64,000 nt of DNA from Candidatus Omnitrophota bacterium (GTDB lineage Bacteria > Omnitrophota > Gorgyraeia > Gygaellales > Profunditerraquicolaceae), in NCBI GenBank assembly GCA_041653955.1, contig JBAZEH010000005.1:178-64177 (forward strand), written 5' to 3'. Below, piece after piece: positions 3,599-12,037 of this stretch. Below the pieces are notes generated by a model. That model was not told where the DNA came from. It searched no databases and saw nothing but the letters and a program-made list of their open reading frames with translations. Positions within the stretch are counted from its first letter, which is position 1. Each line of letters starts with the position of its first letter. A program made the position numbers and the translations under genes.

Positions 3599-4051
3599 TT
3601 ACTTTTTGCGCTTGATGGCGCGGCGCATCTCTAAATCCACTTCTTTGCGCTTGATAGTTTCTCGACGGTCATAAAGTTTCTTGCCTTTACAAAGAGCGAG
3701 CTCTATCTTGGCGAAACCCCTATCGTTAAAGTATGCCTTAAGGGGCACAAGAGTAAACCCCTTCTGCGCTATCTTACCCTCCAGCTTAATGATCTGGGCC
3801 TTACGCAACAAGAGGCGCCTGGGCCTTTTGGGCTCAACGTTCAGGTAGCTCGCCTGAACGTAAGGGCTTATATGCGTATTATAGAGTATTACTTCATTCT
3901 TCTCTACGCGGGCAAAACTATCTTCCATATTCATCTTACCCGCCCGCAAAGATTTTACTTCGCTGCCCTTAAGCTCTATGCCGCATTCAAGGGTTTCTAA
4001 AACCTCATAGTCCCTGCGAGCCTTCTTATTGCTGGAGATGAGCCCATTCAT
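3599..4051 (-). CDS. smpB: SsrA-binding protein SmpB
   Basis: 150 aa (NKKARRDYEVLETLECGIELKGSEVKSL ... ) with the basic C-terminal tail typical of SmpB. Confidence 0.9.
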   Translation of the reverse strand: MNGLISSNKKARRDYEVLETLECGIELKGSEVKSLRAGKMNMEDSFARVEKNEVILYNTHISPYVQASYLNVEPKRPRRLLLRKAQIIKLEGKIAQKGFTLVPLKAYFNDRGFAKIELALCKGKKLYDRRETIKRKEVDLEMRRAIKRKK

Positions 4052-5112: not shown

Positions 5113-5198
5113 GCGGAAGTGGTGGAATGGCAGACACGCAGCGTTCAGGGCGCTGTGGGGGCAACTCCATGAGGGTTCAACTCCCTCCTTCCGCACCA
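5113..5198 (+). tRNA. tRNA-Leu (anticodon CAG), type II with a long variable arm
   Basis: Sequence GCGGAAGTGGTGGAATGGCAGACACGCAGCGTTCAGGGCGCTG...GGGTTCAACTCCCTCCTTCCGCACCA. The anticodon loop is UUCAGGG. The variable arm is long. CCA is encoded. Confidence 0.85.
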
Positions 5199-5227: not shown

Positions 5228-7201
5228 ATGAAAAAAAATAAAACCCTCACCAGCAGGATCATCCTAATCATAGTTATCTGCATCCTGGGTATCGCGGCCT
5301 ACTCCAATACATTCAACAGCCCCTTCCATTTTGACGACGAATCCTCCATAACAGAGAACCTGAACATAAAAAACCTGAATAATTTAAGGATGATATGGGG
5401 GCATTGGCCCACCCGTTTCCTGACCACCCTATCCCTTGCCTTCAATTACCGTATGCATGGGCTTGATCCTTTAGGCTATCATATTTTAAACCTGGCAATA
5501 CACTTATGCGCGGCCATACTCGCTTTCTGGTTCATACTCCTGACATTTGCAACCCCAAACATGAGAGATGATGCGGCCGCCAGGCATGCAAACTCCTTTG
5601 CCTTCTTTGTCGCGGCCCTCTTTGTGGCGCATCCTATACAAACCCAGGCAGTGACCTATATCATCCAAAGGTCTGCCGGTTTAGCGGCCCTATTCTACCT
5701 ATTGGCACTATGCCTTTATATCAGATCCAGGATAATGCAGATAGAAGGAAAAACAAACTACGGCGTTTATTACGCCGCTTCCATCATAACCGCCCTGGCG
5801 GGTATATACACAAAAGAATCAATAGTGACCCTCCCCTTAGCTATACTCCTTTATGAATTTTGCTTCCTGAAAGGAGAACGGGGCATATCCTGGAAAAAAG
5901 TACTGCCGTTTTTTATCATCTCTCTTATAGTCCCGTTTACCGTTATCTTCAGGATATCTGAACACACACCCGATATCCCCGCGCGTTACTACCTGCTGAC
6001 GCAATTACGGGTAATGGTAACTTATATACGGCTCCTATTAATACCGGTAAACCAGAACCTGGATTACGACTATCCTATTATAAAAACATTACTGGATCCT
6101 GCGGCGATGGCAAGCGCCGCGCTGCTGGCGGTGATCCTGATCTTCGCGATACGTTCATTCCGGAAATACAGGATGATCTCATTCTCTATATTCTGGTTCT
6201 TCCTGGCACTCCTGCCTGAATCAAGTATAATGCCTATCCATGACCTGATCTTCGAACACAGGCTGTACCTTGCGGCATTAGGATACGGAATATTCCTGAC
6301 CAGCGCGATATATTACGCTTTTAAAAACAGGTACGCGAAAACAGCCCTGCTTATGCTGATAATACTGGCTTATGCTGTTTCAACATACAAGAGGAACTAT
6401 ATATGGCAGGATACCGTAGTATTATCCAAAGATATAGCGATTAAATCACCGCGCAAAGCAAGGGCGTACCTGCATCTGGGGAATGCATATGCAAAAAAGA
6501 AGATCTATGATAAGGCAATAGAAAGTTTTAACAGGGCGCTTGAATTGGCGCCTGATTACGGGGATGCTTATTATAATATCGGGGCCGCCTATTATGAAAA
6601 AGGGGATATGGAAAACGCCCTCCCCTATTTAGACAGCGCGATACGGATAAATCCGAAAGACTCCGAGGCCTATTATTACAGGGGATTGGTTTTAAACAGC
6701 AGGAAGGAGCATGCCAGGGCAATATCAGATTTTAAAGAAGCGATCCTCATAGCCCCTGAACGGGTAGAGCCATACCGCGCGCTCGCTGATACCTACCGGG
6801 CGGCAGGCAAAGATAAGGAAGCGGCCGCACTATATGATAAAGCGATATCGGCGCATCCGTATATCTGCGAACTGTATATTTATGCCGCCATCTTTTACGG
6901 GAATAAAGGGGACCACGCCAAAGTGCTTGACCTTTGCTCCAAAGCGATCAGGATAAACCCTTACTCATCCGAGGCATACTTTAACCTCGGGGCAGCTTAC
7001 GGGAATATGGGGTATTTTAAAGAAGCTATAAATTCCTTTAGAAAAGCAGTGGCCATTAATCCCAGACTAGCCGCAGCCCATAACGCCCTGGCCATAGCAT
7101 ACTATAATATAAAAGATTACCGCCTCGCGAAAAAACATGCCGATAAAGCCGTAGCGCTAGGATATCCGGTATGCCCCTCATTGCTGGGATCTCCTGAATA
7201 A
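5228..7201 (+). CDS. Integral membrane protein with a TMTC/DUF1736-like N-terminal domain and C-terminal TPR repeats (putative PMT-like glycosyltransferase)
   Basis: 657 aa with about 10 TM helices in the N-terminal 400 aa. The C-terminus carries at least 6 TPR repeats (AYLHLGNAYAKKKIYDKAIESFNRALEL ... ). Confidence 0.55.
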   Translation: MKKNKTLTSRIILIIVICILGIAAYSNTFNSPFHFDDESSITENLNIKNLNNLRMIWGHWPTRFLTTLSLAFNYRMHGLDPLGYHILNLAIHLCAAILAFWFILLTFATPNMRDDAAARHANSFAFFVAALFVAHPIQTQAVTYIIQRSAGLAALFYLLALCLYIRSRIMQIEGKTNYGVYYAASIITALAGIYTKESIVTLPLAILLYEFCFLKGERGISWKKVLPFFIISLIVPFTVIFRISEHTPDIPARYYLLTQLRVMVTYIRLLLIPVNQNLDYDYPIIKTLLDPAAMASAALLAVILIFAIRSFRKYRMISFSIFWFFLALLPESSIMPIHDLIFEHRLYLAALGYGIFLTSAIYYAFKNRYAKTALLMLIILAYAVSTYKRNYIWQDTVVLSKDIAIKSPRKARAYLHLGNAYAKKKIYDKAIESFNRALELAPDYGDAYYNIGAAYYEKGDMENALPYLDSAIRINPKDSEAYYYRGLVLNSRKEHARAISDFKEAILIAPERVEPYRALADTYRAAGKDKEAAALYDKAISAHPYICELYIYAAIFYGNKGDHAKVLDLCSKAIRINPYSSEAYFNLGAAYGNMGYFKEAINSFRKAVAINPRLAAAHNALAIAYYNIKDYRLAKKHADKAVALGYPVCPSLLGSPE

Positions 7202-7210
7202 TACAAGAAA

Positions 7211-8593
7211 CTAATAAAGCTTATTGCCCCTTCTTCCCACGGCGTCAAATCCAAACAGCTCTTCAAGCCTGTCGGGTATATGTTCGGAAAGAATGGCTAG
7301 CGCAGCTGCCGCAAGCTCTAATTTTTCGCGGAATAGCTCGCAGCTTCTATCGTAAGGTACAGCGGGGTCCCCGTTGAAATAATAGTTTATATTAAGGCAG
7401 GAACCTGTCGTACGGCAGAGCGCGAAAAGTTCACACTCCCCGCAGTGTAAAAAACGCCCTTTTATCTTCCGCGTGAAAGCGCGGTAAGCCCTCTTATCTA
7501 AACCGGAAAGCACGTTACCGAGCCTGAAATCTTCTATGCCCAAAAAAGACGTGCAAGGATAAATATCGCCTTCAGCGGTTACGGCAAATTGCCCTCTTGC
7601 CGCGGGGCAGCCCCCGGTGACCTCATGGCTATAATAAAGCCTCTGCATCAATTTAAAAAAACGGTTGAAGAATGTTTTACGGTAATCAAGGGATCCGGCT
7701 AACGTATCCTTTATGTAACACCTCGCCAGTTTTTCATATTCCCTGCGCAAGATCGCGCGCTGTTCCGGAGTATTGAAGAAATACCTCTCCCTGCTGGGGG
7801 TTATCCTGTGGCAGGCATCTTCGCTTTCAAACAACTCGACGCGCTCAAAACCCAGCCTTTTTAAGTCGGAATATAAAGCCGGCATATCGCTGCAAAACGG
7901 AGTTACTGTAGCGCGCCCCACAAGCCTCTTCATAATACCGTCGGGCATATTTTTCAGGTTTGAGGCGATCTTATTAAAACTGCCCTTGCCCGTAACGAAA
8001 GGCCTGTTATTATCATGCACCTTTTTACGGCCGTCTACACTCACGGCGATCTGCACGCCGCTGTCAATCAACTTCTTTGCCAAGGCGGGAGTAAGCAGGG
8101 TGCCGTTAGTGGCAAGCAGAAAATGAAAATTTACCCCCCACCTCTTTTGATTGCCCCTGCAGTATTCTACCGCCGCGAAAAGAGTCTTGGTGTTCAAAAG
8201 CGGTTCTCCGCCGTAAAAATCCACCACAAGGTCGTTATCATCTCCGCGCATATCAACCAGCATATCAACAGCCTTAAAGGCGACTCTGCTGCTCATTTCT
8301 CCGGAAGAGGCAGCGGCTTTAACCCGGCGGCCTTTGACTTTTGAAAAAGCGCGGTTTGAGTATTTCCCCCGGTCATTCCAGCAATATAAACATTTTAAAT
8401 TACAGCGGGAGGTAAGGTTAAGGGTAATATCGGTGACGCAGTCTTTTGCGGTATCATCCCCCGAAGAGACCCCTGCGGTAACCGGAAAATATTCCAGTAT
8501 TTCACGGGGTATACCGTATCTTCTTCCGGATCCATACGCGTGAGCTAAAGAAAAATGCGATGGAAGCGAAAATCCGTCATTCCATTTCTTCAA
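7211..8593 (-). CDS. Radical SAM/SPASM-domain enzyme (anSME/peptide-maturase-like); non-ATG (TTG) start
   Basis: The CxxxCxxC motif (SRCNLKCLYCWND) sits at residues 64-71, followed by GGEPLL. C-terminal SPASM cysteines: GGCPA ... CTSF ... HCGECELFALC ... GSC. There is no Met codon before residue 100, so the start must be TTG or GTG. Confidence 0.8.
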   Translation of the reverse strand: MKKWNDGFSLPSHFSLAHAYGSGRRYGIPREILEYFPVTAGVSSGDDTAKDCVTDITLNLTSRCNLKCLYCWNDRGKYSNRAFSKVKGRRVKAAASSGEMSSRVAFKAVDMLVDMRGDDNDLVVDFYGGEPLLNTKTLFAAVEYCRGNQKRWGVNFHFLLATNGTLLTPALAKKLIDSGVQIAVSVDGRKKVHDNNRPFVTGKGSFNKIASNLKNMPDGIMKRLVGRATVTPFCSDMPALYSDLKRLGFERVELFESEDACHRITPSRERYFFNTPEQRAILRREYEKLARCYIKDTLAGSLDYRKTFFNRFFKLMQRLYYSHEVTGGCPAARGQFAVTAEGDIYPCTSFLGIEDFRLGNVLSGLDKRAYRAFTRKIKGRFLHCGECELFALCRTTGSCLNINYYFNGDPAVPYDRSCELFREKLELAAAALAILSEHIPDRLEELFGFDAVGRRGNKLY

Positions 8594-8711
8594 TGCATTA
8601 TATGTTTCGGGGGATAGATTGTAAAAATCGCCTGTGCGGGTTGAGATACCGATACAACGGCCTAGCTTCTTGAAAAGATATACTGGCTTCTTGATGGGCT
8701 CTTCCCTATAA

Positions 8712-8795
8712 TTACCAGAGCACCCTGCCCGAGCGGCAATAACGAGAGAGCTTCCTTTTTGCTTTAGAGACTTTATTTACCCTGGTCGCTTTCAT
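8712..8795 (-). CDS. Unannotated 27-aa, highly basic small ORF (MKATRVNKVSKAKRKLSRYCRSGRVLW) between the M48 peptidase and the radical SAM gene
   Basis: ATG is preceded by AAGGAG with a 5-nt spacer. The ORF lies 63 nt downstream of the upstream gene stop and 118 nt upstream of the rSAM/SPASM gene, on the same strand. It is below the length cut-off of the ORF track. 10 of 27 residues are Lys/Arg, and it ends in Trp. Confidence 0.4.
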   Translation of the reverse strand: MKATRVNKVSKAKRKLSRYCRSGRVLW

Positions 8796-8858
8796 ATTTA
8801 CTCCTTAACTGTTATTTTCCTACACGTCAACGCAAATTGCAAGAAAAATCTACGCGGC

Positions 8859-10193
8859 TTATTTATGAGGGGTCTGTTCGATATTGATATAATCGGTGAA
8901 ATTTATATCCTCCCCTATCTCCTGCTTTACGGTGCGCACCCTGTCAGGGGTATAGGGGTGGGTTTTAAAATAAGAATATTGCCTGGGAGGCCTTCTGCGG
9001 TCCAACTCTTCCAATTTACGCAAAAAAGCGATCATCCCCTTAGGATCATATCCAGCTAATCTGGCGTAACGGCTCGCTAACTGGTCGGCGAGCAGCTCAT
9101 CTTCCCGCGAGTATCCCGTCATTATTGAAGCGAAGGCGAGGTCTGTTGCGCCTCCGGCACCCGCCGTCTGGGGCACAGCCGCAGTCAATATCCTGAAAAA
9201 ATTATACCCCATTATAGCCTGTAGTTTCTTTATGCTATGCCTGGCAACGATATGCGCGACTTCATGCGCCAGGACGCACGCCAGCTCATCGTCATTATCT
9301 ACCTTATCCACGAGCCCGCTGTTCACGTATATAAACCCTCCGGGCAGGGAAAAGGCATTCGCCTCATCATCCTCTATCACCTTAAAAGTATATTTTATAT
9401 CTTTCCTGTCGCAGACATCCACGATCTTCCTGCCGATATCCTCAACGCGTTTCTGCACCAGGGGGTCCAGAACAAGCTTATACTCCTCTTCTACCTGCCG
9501 CGCCACGGATTCCCCTATTTTTACCTCTCTATCAGTACTGTAATAGTATGCCTCTTCCTGCTTAGTCACAATATTGTATTCGGTAGAACACCCCGAGGCA
9601 AAAAAGCATAACAGGATAAAAACGGAGATCAGCCCCATATCCCTGAATATGCGGTATAATCTCCTTAAAGGCAGGCCCACAACATTATAAAAACACCCCT
9701 CTATGCGCCGGATAAAAAACGCGCCTTTGCCCTGGATATCAAAGCTGCCCGCTTTATCCAGCGGAGAAACGCGGGCAAAATAATCTTTTATCTGTTTATC
9801 GCTTAACCTGTCCATATATACCTTTGTCTTCTCGCACCCCGTCTTTACCTTACACTTATCCTTGTCTATGACGGCGACCCCGGTATAAAGCCACTGCGGC
9901 TTACGGGAGAGCCTTTTCAACATCCGGCGCGCGTCCTCCATATCTTTAGGCTTACCGAACAGTTTGCCATCCTGCACCGCTATCGTGTCGGCCCCGATAA
10001 TAATACCGCCCTTTACCTTCGCGGACACGCTCTTAGCTTTAGCCAGGGCATTCCTCTTCACCAATGCCGCGTATGATTGCCCGCGCTTTCTGTCCTCTGT
10101 TATTTCAGCAGGCAGGACCCTGAACTTCAACCCGAATATCTCAAGCAGTTTCCTGCGCGCCCTGGAGTCGGAAGCTAAATATATTTTTCTCAT
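8859..10193 (-). CDS. maf: In-frame fusion ORF: Maf-like nucleoside triphosphate pyrophosphatase (N-terminal 186 aa) + lipoprotein-signal M48 zinc metallopeptidase (C-terminal ~260 aa); the M48 part may also start internally at ATG 9638
   Basis: The N-terminus MRKIYLASDSRARRKLLEIFGLKF matches Maf. At residue ~186 a lipoprotein signal (MGLISVFILLCFFASGC) begins, followed by an M48 HEXXH motif (LAHEVAHIVARH). No stop codon separates the two parts. The track ORF extends to 10283, but the Maf-type start is the ATG at 10193, abutting the upstream gene stop. Confidence 0.7.
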   Translation of the reverse strand: MRKIYLASDSRARRKLLEIFGLKFRVLPAEITEDRKRGQSYAALVKRNALAKAKSVSAKVKGGIIIGADTIAVQDGKLFGKPKDMEDARRMLKRLSRKPQWLYTGVAVIDKDKCKVKTGCEKTKVYMDRLSDKQIKDYFARVSPLDKAGSFDIQGKGAFFIRRIEGCFYNVVGLPLRRLYRIFRDMGLISVFILLCFFASGCSTEYNIVTKQEEAYYYSTDREVKIGESVARQVEEEYKLVLDPLVQKRVEDIGRKIVDVCDRKDIKYTFKVIEDDEANAFSLPGGFIYVNSGLVDKVDNDDELACVLAHEVAHIVARHSIKKLQAIMGYNFFRILTAAVPQTAGAGGATDLAFASIMTGYSREDELLADQLASRYARLAGYDPKGMIAFLRKLEELDRRRPPRQYSYFKTHPYTPDRVRTVKQEIGEDINFTDYINIEQTPHK

Positions 10194-10194
10194 C

Positions 10195-11439
10195 TCATAA
10201 CAGGGCCGCGCTCTCTCCGGCAAGATAACCGGTAGAGAATGCGGCCTGTAAATTAAACCCGCCTGTATCGGCGTCCACGTCAATTATCTCTCCGGCAAAA
10301 TAAAGCCCTTTGATAAGACGCGACTCCATCGTGCGAGGGTTTATATCCTTTAAAGAGACCCCTCCGCGGGTGACCATCGCGTCTTCTATGGGGCGGGGCC
10401 TTACAATATCAAGGCGCATCCCCTTAAACAATGATACCAGCGCCTCCCGCTCTTTAAGGGTAACCTGGCTCGCTTGCCTCTTTTCCGGAACCCTGGCTAT
10501 ATCAATGAACAGGTCCACTAACCGCGCTGGCAACAGGCTCTTCAGCGTATTTTTGATATTTTTTCTGGGGTTAGCCTTAAACTCCCTTAAGAGGCGCGCG
10601 TGCAGCTGCTCCCTGCTTAAGGCTGGTTTCAGGTCTATCTCTACATATACGGAGCTGCCAGGCTTAAACCAATCCGCTATCCGGCCGCTTAAAGAAAGGA
10701 CAAGCGGGCCGGAGATGCCGAACCCCGTAAACATAAGCTCCCCTATTTCAGAACTTATCTCTTTTTTTGTATCACTGAATCTTAAGCGTATATTCTTCAG
10801 CGTCACCCCTTCCAGCAATTTTGGGTAATGCTGCCTTGCCTCAAGGGGCACCAGTCCCGGGCGAAACGGCACTATACGGTGCCCTAATCTGCCGGCCAGC
10901 TTTAATCCTTCCCCCGTAGAGCCGGTAAAACCGTAAGATACCCCTCCGGTAGCTAAAATAACTTTATCGGCCGCGATCACCCTGCCGTCTGCAAGAGATA
11001 AACCTTTTATTGTATTATCCCGCGTGAATATATCTTTAACTACGGACTTATAAATTATTTGCACCCCGTTCTTCAGCAATTCTTTCTTGAGGATTTCGGC
11101 CACGCTTACCGAGCTGTCAGTCTGCGGAAAAACGCGCAGCTGCCTTTCAATCTTCAATTTCAGCCCCCTCTTTTCAAAGAAACGCATCAATTCAAGATTA
11201 AAGAATTTCTTGAAGGCATCCCTTAAGAACTGTCCGTTACCGGTAAACCTCTTGATAAAGGAATCTAGATCGCAGGTGTTGGTGAGATTGCAGCGGCCCT
11301 TGCCGCTCAAAAGAAGTTTCCTGCCTAAGATAGGATTTTTTTCTATTAAAGTTACCTGACGGATGAGCTCGCCTGCTTTTATGGCGGCCATCATCCCCGC
11401 CGGCCCGCCGCCCACCACAACTATTTTTTTATTATCCAC
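10195..11439 (-). CDS. NAD(P)/FAD-dependent oxidoreductase, HI0933/BaiN-like flavoprotein family
   Basis: Rossmann motif VVVGGGPAGMMAAIKA near the N-terminus. The 414-aa length is typical of the family. Confidence 0.7.
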   Translation of the reverse strand: MDNKKIVVVGGGPAGMMAAIKAGELIRQVTLIEKNPILGRKLLLSGKGRCNLTNTCDLDSFIKRFTGNGQFLRDAFKKFFNLELMRFFEKRGLKLKIERQLRVFPQTDSSVSVAEILKKELLKNGVQIIYKSVVKDIFTRDNTIKGLSLADGRVIAADKVILATGGVSYGFTGSTGEGLKLAGRLGHRIVPFRPGLVPLEARQHYPKLLEGVTLKNIRLRFSDTKKEISSEIGELMFTGFGISGPLVLSLSGRIADWFKPGSSVYVEIDLKPALSREQLHARLLREFKANPRKNIKNTLKSLLPARLVDLFIDIARVPEKRQASQVTLKEREALVSLFKGMRLDIVRPRPIEDAMVTRGGVSLKDINPRTMESRLIKGLYFAGEIIDVDADTGGFNLQAAFSTGYLAGESAALL

Positions 11440-11445
11440 CTGAAA

Positions 11446-12000
11446 TCAAACGCCCAGGTCTTTTATGGTAAATATGGATTCTAGTTTAAGCCCGATTCCG
11501 GAGAGATTTTCGCCTGCCCCTTCCATCCTGTCTACTATTACGATCGCTTTCTCCACGCGGACGCCCAGCTCATCCAGCGCCTCCTTTGCCTCAATAAGCG
11601 AACCGCCGGTAGTAGCCACGTCATCAACAAGTATTGCCTTATCTGTATTATTTAAAGGGGGCCCTTCTATCCGGCGCTGCGTCCCATGCCCCTTCGCCGC
11701 CTTCCTGACGATAAATGTTTTAATGGGTATCTTCTCAATATGGCTTAACGCGGCAGCCGCGCCCACAATAGGGTCAGCGCCCAAGGTAGGCCCTCCTATA
11801 GCGGTAATACCCGTGCCTTCTGCCAACCCCAGGATAATAGAGGCTACCAGATACGCCCCTTCAGGGGTAAGGGTAATAATCCTGCCGTCAAGATAATAGC
11901 TGCTCTTCTTGCCGGAAGATAGCGTAAAATCACCTTTTTTAAACGCCTCTTTCTTAAGCAGCGCTAACAGGCTTATTTTAAGGTCTTCTATTCTTTCCAT
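11446..12000 (-). CDS. pyrE: Orotate phosphoribosyltransferase
   Basis: PRPP-binding motif AILVDDVATTGGS and OPRTase-like N-terminus. The start is set at the ATG at 12000, preceded by GGGAG. Confidence 0.8.
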   Translation of the reverse strand: MERIEDLKISLLALLKKEAFKKGDFTLSSGKKSSYYLDGRIITLTPEGAYLVASIILGLAEGTGITAIGGPTLGADPIVGAAAALSHIEKIPIKTFIVRKAAKGHGTQRRIEGPPLNNTDKAILVDDVATTGGSLIEAKEALDELGVRVEKAIVIVDRMEGAGENLSGIGLKLESIFTIKDLGV

Positions 12001-12037
12001 ATATATAATTTTACTCCCGTAGCATATAAGTGTCAAA

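Follow-up and report, generated by a model that had tools for sequence, protein, structure and literature searches.

Genes and features at the locus

The window (the whole analysed stretch of 64,000 nucleotides) carries, on its minus strand, a Maf-M48 fusion gene, a small ORF and a gene encoding a radical SAM (rSAM)/SPASM enzyme. Their coordinates and main features are given in Table 1.

Table 1. Genes, domains and sequence signals of the locus
Feature	Position	Strand	Basis
Maf-M48 fusion, 444 aa (Maf residues 1-189, M48 219-428)	8859-10193	-	PF02545 183.8 bits, PF01435 113.8 bits
Shine-Dalgarno AAGGAG	8801-8806	-	5 nt upstream of peptide ATG; read from the sequence
Putative precursor-peptide gene, 27 aa, MKATRVNKVSKAKRKLSRYCRSGRVLW	8712-8795	-	ORF; ATG 8793-8795, TAA 8712-8714
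rSAM translation-initiation region (proposed): purine-rich GGGAAGAG (8699-8706), then ATC (8693-8695)	8693-8706	-	16 nt downstream of peptide TAA
Radical SAM/SPASM peptide maturase, 494 aa	7211-8695	-	Full-length alignment to orthologues of ~500 aa; proposed ATC start 8693-8695
RRE-like (PqqD-type) N-terminal domain, residues ~1-70	8486-8695	-	AF2 fold, predicted
CX3CX2C motif (C98, C102, C105), radical-SAM [4Fe-4S] cluster	8381-8404	-	Invariant in 56/56 aligned members; PF04055 match
SPASM domain, seven invariant Cys (C363, C381, C418, C421, C427, C433, C452)	7340-7609	-	56/56 sequences; two auxiliary [4Fe-4S] clusters

An earlier note had described the 27-aa ORF, the AAGGAG before its ATG and a start 63 nt past the stop of the upstream ORF, all of which were confirmed. 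At almost every homologous locus the peptide ATG has a strong Shine-Dalgarno sequence, GGAGG or AGGAG, ahead of it. The N-terminal part of the peptide is rich in Lys and Arg and carries a conserved [IVL]-N-K motif; the C-terminal core LSRYCRSGRVLW follows, with the stop codon directly after it. It had no match in Pfam, NCBIfam, PDB or the literature searched.

The public annotation and the ORF listing contain only a 460-aa version of the rSAM protein, starting from TTG 8593. Upstream of this codon the frame remains open, and its product, IKKPVYLFKKLGRCIGISTRTGDFYNLSPETYNA, can be aligned to the N-terminal region that all orthologues conserve. The ATC at 8693-8695 is the most likely start, since the open frame ahead of this conserved region offers no ATG, GTG or TTG; an ATT or ATC was found at the same position, 5-7 nt after GGAGG/AGGAG, in about 12 orthologous loci. 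The 118 nt previously counted as the gap between the peptide and rSAM genes are not intergenic but coding in the rSAM frame, leaving an actual gap of ~16 nt, and the N-terminal extension, put at about 60 residues, comprises approximately 94, the RRE-like domain included. The observation that no Met precedes residue 100 in the 460-aa version was correct.

The AF2 model of the 494-aa enzyme has a pLDDT of 87.8 (90-96 for residues 1-40). The predicted N-terminus comprises strands 5-10, 13-18 and 24-27 and helices 29-41, 50-59 and 64-69, i.e. the beta-beta-beta-alpha-alpha-alpha order of a PqqD-like winged helix with three strands and three helices, and a start at TTG 8593 would remove all three strands. 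This RRE-like domain is presumed to be the docking site for the N-terminal part of the peptide.

Conservation of the peptide gene and its neighbours

In a search of reference genomes that started from the rSAM protein, 37 of 39 loci had an ORF ending in LSRYCRSGRVLW and a stop codon next to the orthologous rSAM/SPASM gene, and the same small ORF was also present at two distant loci beyond these 39. In a metagenome scan that started from the peptide, an rSAM gene was adjacent in 51 of 52 matches, the sole exception lying at a contig edge. This showed that the two genes are obligate, reciprocal neighbours across Omnitrophota and Elusimicrobia, the range of the cassette, and that they have the arrangement of a RiPP precursor/maturase pair, in which a short precursor gene beside an enzyme gene is conserved across genomes. 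The peptide gene is placed downstream of the rSAM gene at five genome loci and one metagenome locus, on the opposite strand (convergent) but still adjacent; the peptide is therefore an independent gene product. Neither a protease or exporter, nor a peptidase, flavoenzyme or other tailoring gene, was conserved with the pair at the genome loci or the 52 metagenome loci.

The peptide core follows the pattern [YF]-C-R-[SC]-G-R-V-L-W-stop across the family. Tyr19 is exchanged only for Phe in the aligned loci, every locus of either subfamily has Cys20, and Trp is the last residue, with the stop codon directly after it, in all ~90 loci. Among the core residues are an invariant Tyr or Phe, three Arg and a Trp at the C-terminus; Asp, Glu and Thr are absent. 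In a paralogous rSAM clade (38-42% identity) the accompanying peptide is a variant ending in ...AAFCRCGRVLW. The combination of a variable N-terminus with an invariant core is a pattern unusual for antibiotic RiPPs.

Pairwise comparison of the core codons revealed 4850 synonymous versus 228 nonsynonymous differences, the former including switches between TCN and AGC and between CGN and AGR. Variation at codon positions 1, 2 and 3 was 0.058, 0.013 and 0.408, respectively. These values indicate strong purifying selection at the amino-acid level and support the small ORF as a conserved gene that is translated. The proposal that the ORF is real was thereby borne out: it recurs, core unchanged, far beyond what chance would give, and most of the variation falls on the third codon position. 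Loss of the ORF from homologous loci, with variation that is not codon-like, had been named as grounds for rejecting it, and the reverse was found.

It could be argued that the small ORF is a regulatory uORF or translational-coupling device, or the 5' end of the rSAM gene displaced by a frameshift, and not a substrate. This would fit the short distance between the peptide stop and the rSAM start, which is 16 nt in the window and 2-3 nt in L011 (where the rSAM start is also non-canonical), and the extension of the rSAM frame across the 3' half of this ORF. However, such extreme amino-acid conservation would be superfluous in an ORF serving only for coupling, the convergent downstream peptide genes at six loci do not suit it, and in many loci a 60-185 nt spacer with a terminator hairpin separates the two genes. 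Moreover, a peptide-rSAM fusion does not fit the orthologues, in which the PVYLF motif is preceded by only 4-15 residues. Gene order and the selection pattern have already refuted this reading, which retains next to no probability.

The upstream gene does encode a true M48 peptidase, as stated in the earlier note, but not a plain M48 lipoprotein, since a Maf domain is fused at its N-terminus. This Maf-M48 protein is a widespread Omnitrophota fusion that is found without the cassette and always follows PRT and HI0933-flavoprotein genes, forming the conserved string PRT - HI0933-flavoprotein - Maf-M48. In L081, the closest relative, the Maf-M48 gene directly abuts the orthologous TPR gene, with neither peptide nor rSAM gene between them (the flanking products are 79% and 62% identical to those of the window for Maf-M48 and TPR, respectively). 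The same flanks without the insert support the conclusion that the peptide and rSAM genes behave as a cassette.

The earlier note had proposed that three genes act as one module, with the M48 lipoprotein peptidase cutting the leader from the rSAM-modified peptide. The same-strand adjacency of the M48 gene in the window speaks for such a module, as does a different gene, encoding a PDZ-M48 lipoprotein, located directly upstream of the rSAM gene in one lineage (L005, L019, L036). Nevertheless, an M48 gene was adjacent in only 4 of 42 genome loci and near none of the 52 peptide-first metagenome loci, and Maf-M48 keeps its own context without the cassette. In addition, M48 lies behind a lipoprotein-type signal or anchor and should consequently be exposed outside the cytoplasm, the compartment of the rSAM enzyme. 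The three-gene module is largely refuted by synteny and is very improbable; Maf-M48 is a chance neighbour outside the system. Of the proposed peptide-modification trio, the peptide and rSAM pair stood and the M48 gene, as a conserved third component, did not.

Relatives of the rSAM enzyme

The enzyme matches PF04055 (47 bits versus a cut-off of 29.5) and has the fold of rSAM enzymes. The CX3CX2C motif noted earlier at residues 64, 68 and 71 of the 460-aa ORF was verified (it corresponds to residues 98, 102 and 105 of the 494-aa protein), and the SPASM Cys cluster proved to be a seven-Cys motif: G376-x4-C381, C418-x2-C421-x5-C427-x5-C433 ... C452 (PF13186/TIGR04085). Its last spacing is x5, compared to x3 in the family motif C-x9-15-G-x4-C ... 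CX2CX5CX3C ... C. With 19.2 bits the window protein is a weak match that falls slightly short of the PF13186 cut-off (21.5), although many orthologues carry this domain.

The best NCBIfam matches were all peptide maturases, namely PapB (212 bits), nif11 (190), SCIFF (184) and QhpD (172). The protein scored far under every equivalog cut-off, and it could therefore catalyse something else. The closest PDB entry by sequence was CteB (phmmer E=7e-39), which was also the closest fold (Foldseek E ~1e-29, TM 0.74/0.82, 484 columns); the superposition takes in the N-terminal domain, and the seven SPASM Cys align one-to-one. The nearest characterised relative is thus CteB, the SCIFF thioether maturase. 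The next best structural relative was anSME (Foldseek E ~1e-19 to 6e-19; phmmer 1e-11), while ChlB (6e-16) and SuiB (7e-12, TM 0.47) gave weaker Foldseek matches.

The system resembles SCIFF (CteA/ScfA and CteB/ScfB; TIGR03974; PDB 5WGG/5WHY) in having a short conserved peptide beside a single rSAM/SPASM enzyme with an N-terminal RRE, in its lineage-wide, housekeeping-like distribution, and in the lack of a dedicated protease or exporter. However, the enzymes share only ~26% identity, and the protein described here has the SPASM spacing CX2CX5CX5C and a family-specific FESEDACH insertion. SCIFF peptides contain six Cys, whereas the peptide has one (two in subfamily 2), a Lys-rich N-terminus and a C-terminal Trp, and shows no sequence similarity to them; the hosts are Omnitrophota and Elusimicrobia, as opposed to Clostridia. 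Membership in the ScfB/CteB family was rejected on the score (184.5 bits versus 425) and on the single Cys and dissimilar sequence of the peptide.

PapB of the freyrasin type (NF047865), the best NCBIfam match (E=1e-62, full-length to the model), is likewise an rSAM/SPASM enzyme with its precursor encoded next door, and it makes Cys thioethers, as proposed here. The score was nevertheless under the cut-off (212.2 bits versus 340), and PapB substrates carry repeated C-x3-D/E motifs, unlike the present core with its single Cys and no acidic residue. QhpD (TIGR03906) was also rejected (171.7 bits versus 453), with no qhp genes at any locus examined. Clustering with anSME (TIGR03942; PDB 4K36-39), which would have spoken against a peptide maturase, was not observed (75.6 bits versus a cut-off of 349.45); the enzyme belongs to the peptide-maturase clade of rSAM/SPASM proteins. 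Together, the peptide and the enzyme represent a new family of presumed rSAM-modified peptide, SCIFF-like and unnamed to date.

Proposed modification and alternatives

We consider it reasonably probable that positions 7211-8806 (minus strand) constitute a self-contained two-gene cassette, composed of a precursor peptide and the radical SAM/SPASM enzyme that modifies it by forming a thioether at Cys20. The peptide would be translated efficiently from its strong Shine-Dalgarno sequence and ATG, and its Lys-rich N-terminal part with [IVL]-N-K, assumed to be the leader, would dock on the RRE. The 5'-deoxyadenosyl radical would then take a hydrogen from a core residue, and the invariant Cys20 would form one intramolecular thioether of the sacti- or ranthipeptide type to a nearby core residue, resulting in a small ring inside YCRSGRVLW. 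The crosslink is probably a single, Cys-derived one; we infer the thioether chemistry from the nearest relatives. Asp, Glu or Thr acceptors like those of PapB, QhpD or CteB are missing from the core, which counts against this chemistry.

Enzyme output would be held far under peptide output. In the window this could be achieved by the non-canonical AUC start, whose position 16 nt past the peptide stop implies termination-reinitiation coupling, and in other lineages by AUU/AUC starts or hairpin terminators between the genes. Since neither a protease nor an exporter accompanies the pair in a conserved manner, the product probably acts within the cell and retains its basic N-terminal part, which is also the proposal made for SCIFF peptides.

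Other chemistries have to be weighed against the thioether. The earlier suggestion of a Lys-Trp or Arg-Tyr crosslink can be widened to a C-C or C-N cyclophane joining Trp27 or Tyr19 to an Arg or other sp3 carbon, as made by StrB, RrrB, WprB or the triceptide enzymes, or to epimerisation, with a different role for the Cys. Streptide, RRR, WGK and WprB precursors are also small and encoded immediately upstream of an rSAM/SPASM enzyme, and the Arg, Tyr and Trp residues linked in such systems (Arg-Tyr, Lys-Trp and Trp-Arg links are made by known rSAM enzymes; PMC11851443) occur in the core. The restriction of position 19 to Tyr or Phe, the ChlB match, and the presence of YhhB, FxsB and DynA among the weaker NCBIfam matches (1e-23 to 1e-15) point in the same direction. 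However, thioether formers scored far better (1e-62 to 1e-50 versus 1e-23 or weaker), CteB is structurally much nearer than SuiB, there is no shp/rgg context, and a pure C-C crosslink would not require a Cys that is invariant in both subfamilies. We therefore regard this chemistry as unlikely, and less likely than first proposed, though ahead of the other two alternatives considered below.

An anSME-like oxidation of Cys20 in C-R-S-G-R to formylglycine, yielding an aldehyde-bearing peptide, is improbable. It would agree with the rank of anSME among the structural relatives and its rSAM/SPASM fold, with a core (C-x-x-x-R, position +2 being Ser or Cys by subfamily) loosely like the sulfatase motif C-x-P/A-x-R, and with sulfatase-family genes neighbouring the pair in two lineages. 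Yet anSME has no RRE domain, the window protein has no Cys aligned to the first Cys of the anSME CX5C pair, C/S-x-P/A-x-R is missing from each of the eight sulfatase-like neighbours, which show HTAPSN or SSTTSAMPS in its place, and the conserved partner is a peptide, not a sulfatase. Marginally less probable still is a cofactor pathway like those of mycofactocin (MftA/MftB/MftC) and PQQ (PqqA/PqqD/PqqE), in which the enzyme would act on V-L-W, for example by oxidative decarboxylation and Trp crosslinking, and unlinked enzymes would free a small redox or signalling molecule. MftA is a precursor with a C-terminal Tyr, comparable to the strictly terminal Trp observed here; in both known pathways a short precursor has its modified residues invariant and C-terminal, and the rSAM/SPASM enzyme uses an RRE. 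The present core, invariant across phyla behind a variable N-terminus, shows the conservation of PqqA and MftA, a pattern typical of cofactor precursors and not of antibiotic RiPPs. On the other hand, the RRE is fused to the enzyme here and is a separate protein there, the MftC and PqqE models were absent from the top NCBIfam matches, no further pathway genes are conserved, and the invariant Cys would be left without explanation.

With regard to a wider role, we can only speculate that the product of the cassette is a modified basic micro-protein or peptide-derived cofactor, serving Omnitrophota and Elusimicrobia as a lineage-wide physiological component and not as an antibiotic, with a crosslink of a type new to rSAM enzymes. 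It might, for example, be a crosslinked peptide that binds nucleic acids or ribosomes, or else a redox cofactor of Cys/Trp origin like mycofactocin, PQQ or CTQ. Such a role is consistent with YCRSGRVLW-COOH being invariant across phyla, with the strict C-terminal Trp and the variable poly-Lys N-terminus, and, in addition to the missing exporter and protease, with the throttled translation of the enzyme from AUU/AUC starts.

Gene order and conservation of the peptide gene

On the minus strand the gene order is, 5' to 3', an orotate-PRT-like gene, an HI0933-type flavoprotein gene, a 444-aa ORF, the 27-aa peptide ORF and the radical SAM (rSAM) gene; the last two are referred to as the cassette. 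The 27-aa ORF, its ATG and the AAGGAG sequence 5 nt upstream were read in the window exactly as the earlier note described them. A TTGCAA-17-GAAAAT sequence upstream of the peptide, spotted by eye, failed the consensus promoter scan, and promoter/terminator consensus sites within 7000-10400 were no more numerous than in shuffled sequences. Rfam gave no match at E<=1 for the region of the peptide and rSAM genes, and its nucleotide conservation is explained by the coding sequence; a conserved RNA element there was rejected. A tRNA-Leu(CAG) gene lies ~2 kb from the cassette, on the far side of the TPR gene.

Positions of features in the window and in homologous loci (L numbers)
Feature	Sequence	Position	Strand	Remark
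Orotate-PRT-like gene	window	11446-12036	minus	
HI0933-type flavoprotein gene	window	10195-11439	minus	
444-aa ORF	window	8859-10193	minus	Maf-M48 fusion
27-aa peptide ORF	window	8712-8795	minus	
Radical SAM ORF	window	from 7211 upward	minus	
FESEDACH insertion	window	about 7810-7840	minus	rSAM residues 287-296
C-terminal tail LFG.DPVGRRGN.LY	window	7211-7260	minus	rSAM residues 478-494
TPR/membrane protein gene	window	5228-7201	plus	convergent to rSAM
tRNA-Leu(CAG)	window	5113-5198	plus	
Non-canonical rSAM starts (ATT/ATC)	L007, L009, L010, L013, L016, L025, L031, L037, L039	about 3990-4010		L007 GGAGG-TGTGTT-ATC; L010 GGAGG-TGTGAT-ATT; L037 AGGAGG-TGTATT-ATT
Intergenic hairpin	L030	about 3935-3975		L032-L034 at equivalent positions
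Intergenic hairpin	L004	about 3940-3985		
Subfamily-2 peptide	L040	3841-3921		
Subfamily-2 peptide	L041	1811-1891		
Subfamily-2 peptide	L042	3591-3671		
Subfamily-2 peptide	L044	2522-2602		
Subfamily-2 peptide	L045	1831-1911		
Membrane-anchored PF00884 gene	L001/L002	2384-3760		
Membrane-anchored PF00884 gene	L020	5739-7145		
Membrane-anchored PF00884 gene	L093, L100, L106, L111, L138			
B12-binding rSAM genes, genome loci	L007, L010, L016, L021-L025, L030, L032-L034, L038, L039			
B12-binding rSAM genes, metagenome loci	L087, L090, L092, L095, L101, L115, L121, L123, L135			

An enzyme-first scan, with one genome per species, yielded 39 orthologous loci (54-65% identity). An ORF ending in ...LSRYCRSGRVLW-stop, always with a strong SD sequence, adjoins the rSAM gene in 37 of them; the other two are a truncated locus (L038) and one at which the peptide was not found (L027). 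Two distant loci (L043 and L049) likewise carry the peptide. Peptide length ranges from 27 to 53 aa across loci. The N-terminus is Lys-rich and variable and retains an [IVL]-N-K motif; in the core, Tyr is swapped only for Phe, and no substitution occurs at R, C, R, S, G, R, V, L or W. Across 40 loci, pairwise comparison of the 12 core codons gave 4850 synonymous vs 228 nonsynonymous differences, with variability of 0.058, 0.013 and 0.408 at codon positions 1, 2 and 3, and with switches between TCN and AGC (Ser), CGN and AGR (Arg), and CTN and TTR (Leu). Such a pattern is what purifying selection on a translated gene leaves behind. The conservation of the small ORF with codon-like variation, on which the earlier note had staked its proposal, was thus borne out.

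In a peptide-first scan, a back-translated pattern was run against metagenome contigs and gave 55 matches. True peptides account for 52 of these (46 distinct sequences), and an rSAM orthologue adjoins 51 of them, the remaining one being at a contig edge; the matches at L098, L108 and L124 arose by chance inside unrelated ORFs. The two locus sets partly overlap, so that their counts are not fully independent; for example, L033 and L115 are of equal length (194,977 bp), carry an identical peptide and seem to be one contig. All genomes compared are MAGs.

In six loci (L005, L015, L019, L024 and L036 from genomes, L105 from a metagenome) the peptide gene directly follows the rSAM gene but is encoded on the other strand, and the peptide is therefore an independent gene product. 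A frameshifted 5' end or fusion of the rSAM gene was rejected, as the small ORF always ends in W-stop, is convergent in these six loci, and orthologues have just 4-15 residues ahead of PVYLF.

Start, expression and fold of the radical SAM enzyme

Orthologues from Omnitrophota and Elusimicrobia in the protein database (~55-68% identity) are mostly 495-508 aa long, compared with 460 aa for the called window ORF, and their N-termini read M..KPPVYLFKKLGRYLGISTxxGDFYDLSP. The window frame is open upstream of TTG 8593, encoding ...EEPIKKPVYLFKKLGRCIGISTRTGDFYNLSPETYNALKKWN; the 118 nt that separate this codon from the peptide stop, previously taken as intergenic, are therefore not so. ATG, GTG and TTG are all missing from this stretch, and translation from ATC 8693-8695 gives a 494-aa protein that aligns end to end with the orthologues. 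About a dozen orthologous loci have an ATT or ATC start 5-7 nt after a strong GGAGG or AGGAG, and ATG is the start in other lineages. We infer that the window gene starts at AUC 8695, 16 nt past the UAA of the peptide. In public databases, proteins of the clade are annotated at 460, 442, 402 and 362 aa and, judging by the alignments, are N-terminally truncated. The AUU/AUC starts lead gene callers to shorten the orthologues to 362-460 aa, with loss of the RRE, the predicted N-terminal peptide-binding domain; such shortened database entries include proteins P0001 and P0091-P0102.

AUU and AUC starts, as in infC, support initiation at a small fraction of AUG efficiency, and an AUC start combined with a 16-nt spacing would imply low, coupling-dependent translation of the enzyme. 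The spacer between the peptide and rSAM genes differs among loci, being shortest in L011 (2-3 nt) and reaching about 185 nt elsewhere. In L004, in L026 and in four Elusimicrobia loci (L030, L032-L034) it holds a strong GC-rich hairpin ahead of a U-run, and the Elusimicrobia loci share the stem GAAGTCCCCG...CGGGGACTTC. The hairpins probably act as partial terminators or attenuators and so determine how much peptide is made relative to enzyme; the window has instead the short spacer and AUC start. Both arrangements would yield much more peptide than enzyme, and such an excess is a common trait of RiPP operons.

The best NCBIfam matches of the enzyme are all peptide maturases, namely PapB (212 bits), nif11-type (190), SCIFF/ScfB (184), QhpD (172) and CcpM (141), each far below its curated cut-off; the anSME model scored 75.6 bits vs a cut-off of 349. 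On these scores and the substrate features tested, equivalog membership in SCIFF, PapB, QhpD, nif11 or anSME was rejected. The closest relative is CteB, the SCIFF maturase, which is the nearest solved structure by sequence (5WGG, E=7e-39; anSME, 1e-11). An AlphaFold2 model built from 56 homologues (pLDDT 87.8, pTM 0.89) has a predicted N-terminal beta-beta-beta-alpha-alpha-alpha unit at residues 5-69. RRE/PqqD-like folds are used by RiPP maturases to hold precursors, and the modelled unit, which has this topology, may have the same role. Foldseek likewise placed CteB first (E about 1e-29, TM 0.74/0.82, 484 aligned columns, hence including its RRE), followed by anSME (about 1e-19), ChlB (about 1e-16) and SuiB (7e-12, TM 0.47).

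All 56 sequences have, without exception, C98, C102 and C105 and the seven cysteines of the SPASM domain, which align with cysteines of CteB. The window protein has no Cys where the first Cys of the anSME CX5C pair aligns; in anSME this residue is reported, in the structure paper, to serve auxiliary cluster I as its fourth ligand, and its absence here carries little weight. Two near-invariant motifs are specific to the family, a C-terminal tail and an insertion that CteB lacks; the latter includes a conserved Cys295, which in paralogues is shifted to E(V/I)CE(S/T)E.

Neighbouring genes

The earlier note had joined an M48 lipoprotein peptidase to the peptide and the enzyme as a trio. The M48 domain is present (PF01435, 113.8 bits), but the protein is not a plain M48 lipoprotein: residues 1-189 form a Maf nucleotide pyrophosphatase domain (PF02545, 183.8 bits), joined to M48 by the lipoprotein-like hydrophobic segment MGLISVFILLCFFASGC. 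Its Maf part may be cytoplasmic and its M48 part extracytoplasmic. The fusion is widespread in Omnitrophota, with >120 full-length homologues carrying both domains (65-79% identity; NCBI name 'Maf and M48 domain-containing protein'), and always follows the PRT and HI0933 flavoprotein genes in a conserved string of its own.

ORF clustering of 42 loci showed that only the peptide and rSAM genes are universally linked. An M48 gene is adjacent in four of these, the window and three loci (L005, L019, L036) of a single lineage, in which the gene encodes another protein, a PDZ-M48 lipoprotein, and in 0/52 peptide-first loci (36 of these >=5 kb). In the closest relative, L081, the Maf-M48 protein is 79% identical to that of the window and is followed after 12 nt by a convergent TPR gene (62% identity over the full length to the window TPR protein), with no peptide motif anywhere in the locus. 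The window thus differs from L081 in having a 1.66-kb cassette between two genes that otherwise adjoin, and the trio was rejected.

In two lineages (L001, L002, L020; L093, L100, L106, L111, L138) the cassette has genes of the PF00884 sulfatase family as neighbours. The formylglycine signature C/S-x-P/A-x-R occurs in 0/8 of the encoded proteins, all of which have HTAPSN or SSTTSAMPS at its position; they are probably Thr/Ser-nucleophile enzymes of the alkaline phosphatase superfamily, not true sulfatases.

B12-binding rSAM genes (PF02310 + PF04055, about 470-540 aa), one to three in tandem, adjoin the cassette in both phyla, in 15/42 genome loci and 9/52 metagenome loci. The whole 64-kb window has none, and an obligatory third component was thus rejected, recurrent as these genes are. 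As neighbours they may be optional or lineage-specific, perhaps serving as tailoring methyltransferases, or they may just be paralogues that are plentiful in these genomes.

Proposed maturation and related systems

The peptide and the rSAM protein very probably form a substrate-maturase pair. The peptide would dock on the RRE by its Lys-rich N-terminus, which bears the [IVL]NK motif, and the enzyme would then join the invariant Cys20 to another core residue close by in a single intramolecular thioether. A Cys thioether as the bond formed is tentative, at best an even bet; taken as one statement, a substrate-maturase pair with a single Cys20 thioether is judged reasonably probable. No conserved protease or exporter accompanies the pair among the loci surveyed, so that the product probably remains intracellular and keeps its basic tail, in which it would resemble SCIFF peptides and differ from secreted bacteriocins. 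The cassette would work like the SCIFF peptide and CteB.

Other chemistries were weighed against the Cys20 thioether. An aromatic-to-Arg cyclophane link or epimerisation, both among the known rSAM chemistries listed in PMC11851443, is unlikely but retains a real chance. Conversion of Cys to formylglycine on the C-R-S-G-R motif, as by anSME, is improbable: an anSME with a sulfatase partner, which the earlier note had named among the things that would refute its reading, was rejected on the model score, the Cys alignment and the motif-less PF00884 neighbours. MftC-like chemistry, for which the strictly C-terminal V-L-W could serve as target, is decidedly improbable. The M48 peptidase as third module member, which its position in the window might suggest, is very improbable in view of its own conserved string, its rare adjacency and the L081 synteny. 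A purely regulatory upstream ORF has virtually no chance, being ruled out by the opposite-strand downstream placement in six loci.

The substrate-maturase pair belongs to the general kind of rSAM/SPASM maturases with a fused RRE and an adjacent precursor, and is a new family inside it. The peptide has no match beyond noise in Pfam, NCBIfam or PDB, and a profile search of 5.8 billion proteins found 26 called members, all 'hypothetical' and none named; its gene is usually missed by gene callers. A literature search on the motif string and on Omnitrophota/Elusimicrobia rSAM RiPPs returned only generic BGC surveys, with no description of the family. One more rSAM-RiPP family is in itself not surprising; for the specialist, the phylum-wide invariance, Lys-rich leader, single Cys and AUU/AUC starts are of note, as is the wide occurrence of an unannotated precursor family and rSAM/SPASM clade in the poorly understood, mostly uncultured Omnitrophota and Elusimicrobia. 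The invariance of the core over phylum-level distances makes it probable that the target or role of the product in the cell is conserved. Such a role is also suspected for SCIFF peptides, the function of which is still unknown. With two genes, a 27-residue substrate and one Cys, the system is an easy target for heterologous reconstitution, which could reveal a new crosslink; cloning of the annotated ORF would, if the modelled RRE acts as predicted, give an enzyme unable to bind its substrate.

A paralogous rSAM clade (38-42% identity; L040-L042, L044, L045) is preceded by MIRLLNRRKNRRSYRAAFCRCGRVLW, and this second subfamily widens the family core to [YF]-C-R-[SC]-G-R-V-L-W. Its peptides, MIRLLNR(R/K)KN.R.YRAAFCRCGRVLW, differ from the main family in an Arg-rich instead of Lys-rich N-terminus and in Cys for Ser at core position +2. 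Two loci of the main survey, L022 and L037, come from one MAG (JBAYMG01, isolate SO_2016_LW1_34), and their peptides have different N-termini (27 and 34 aa) and an identical core; a single genome can thus hold two copies of the cassette.
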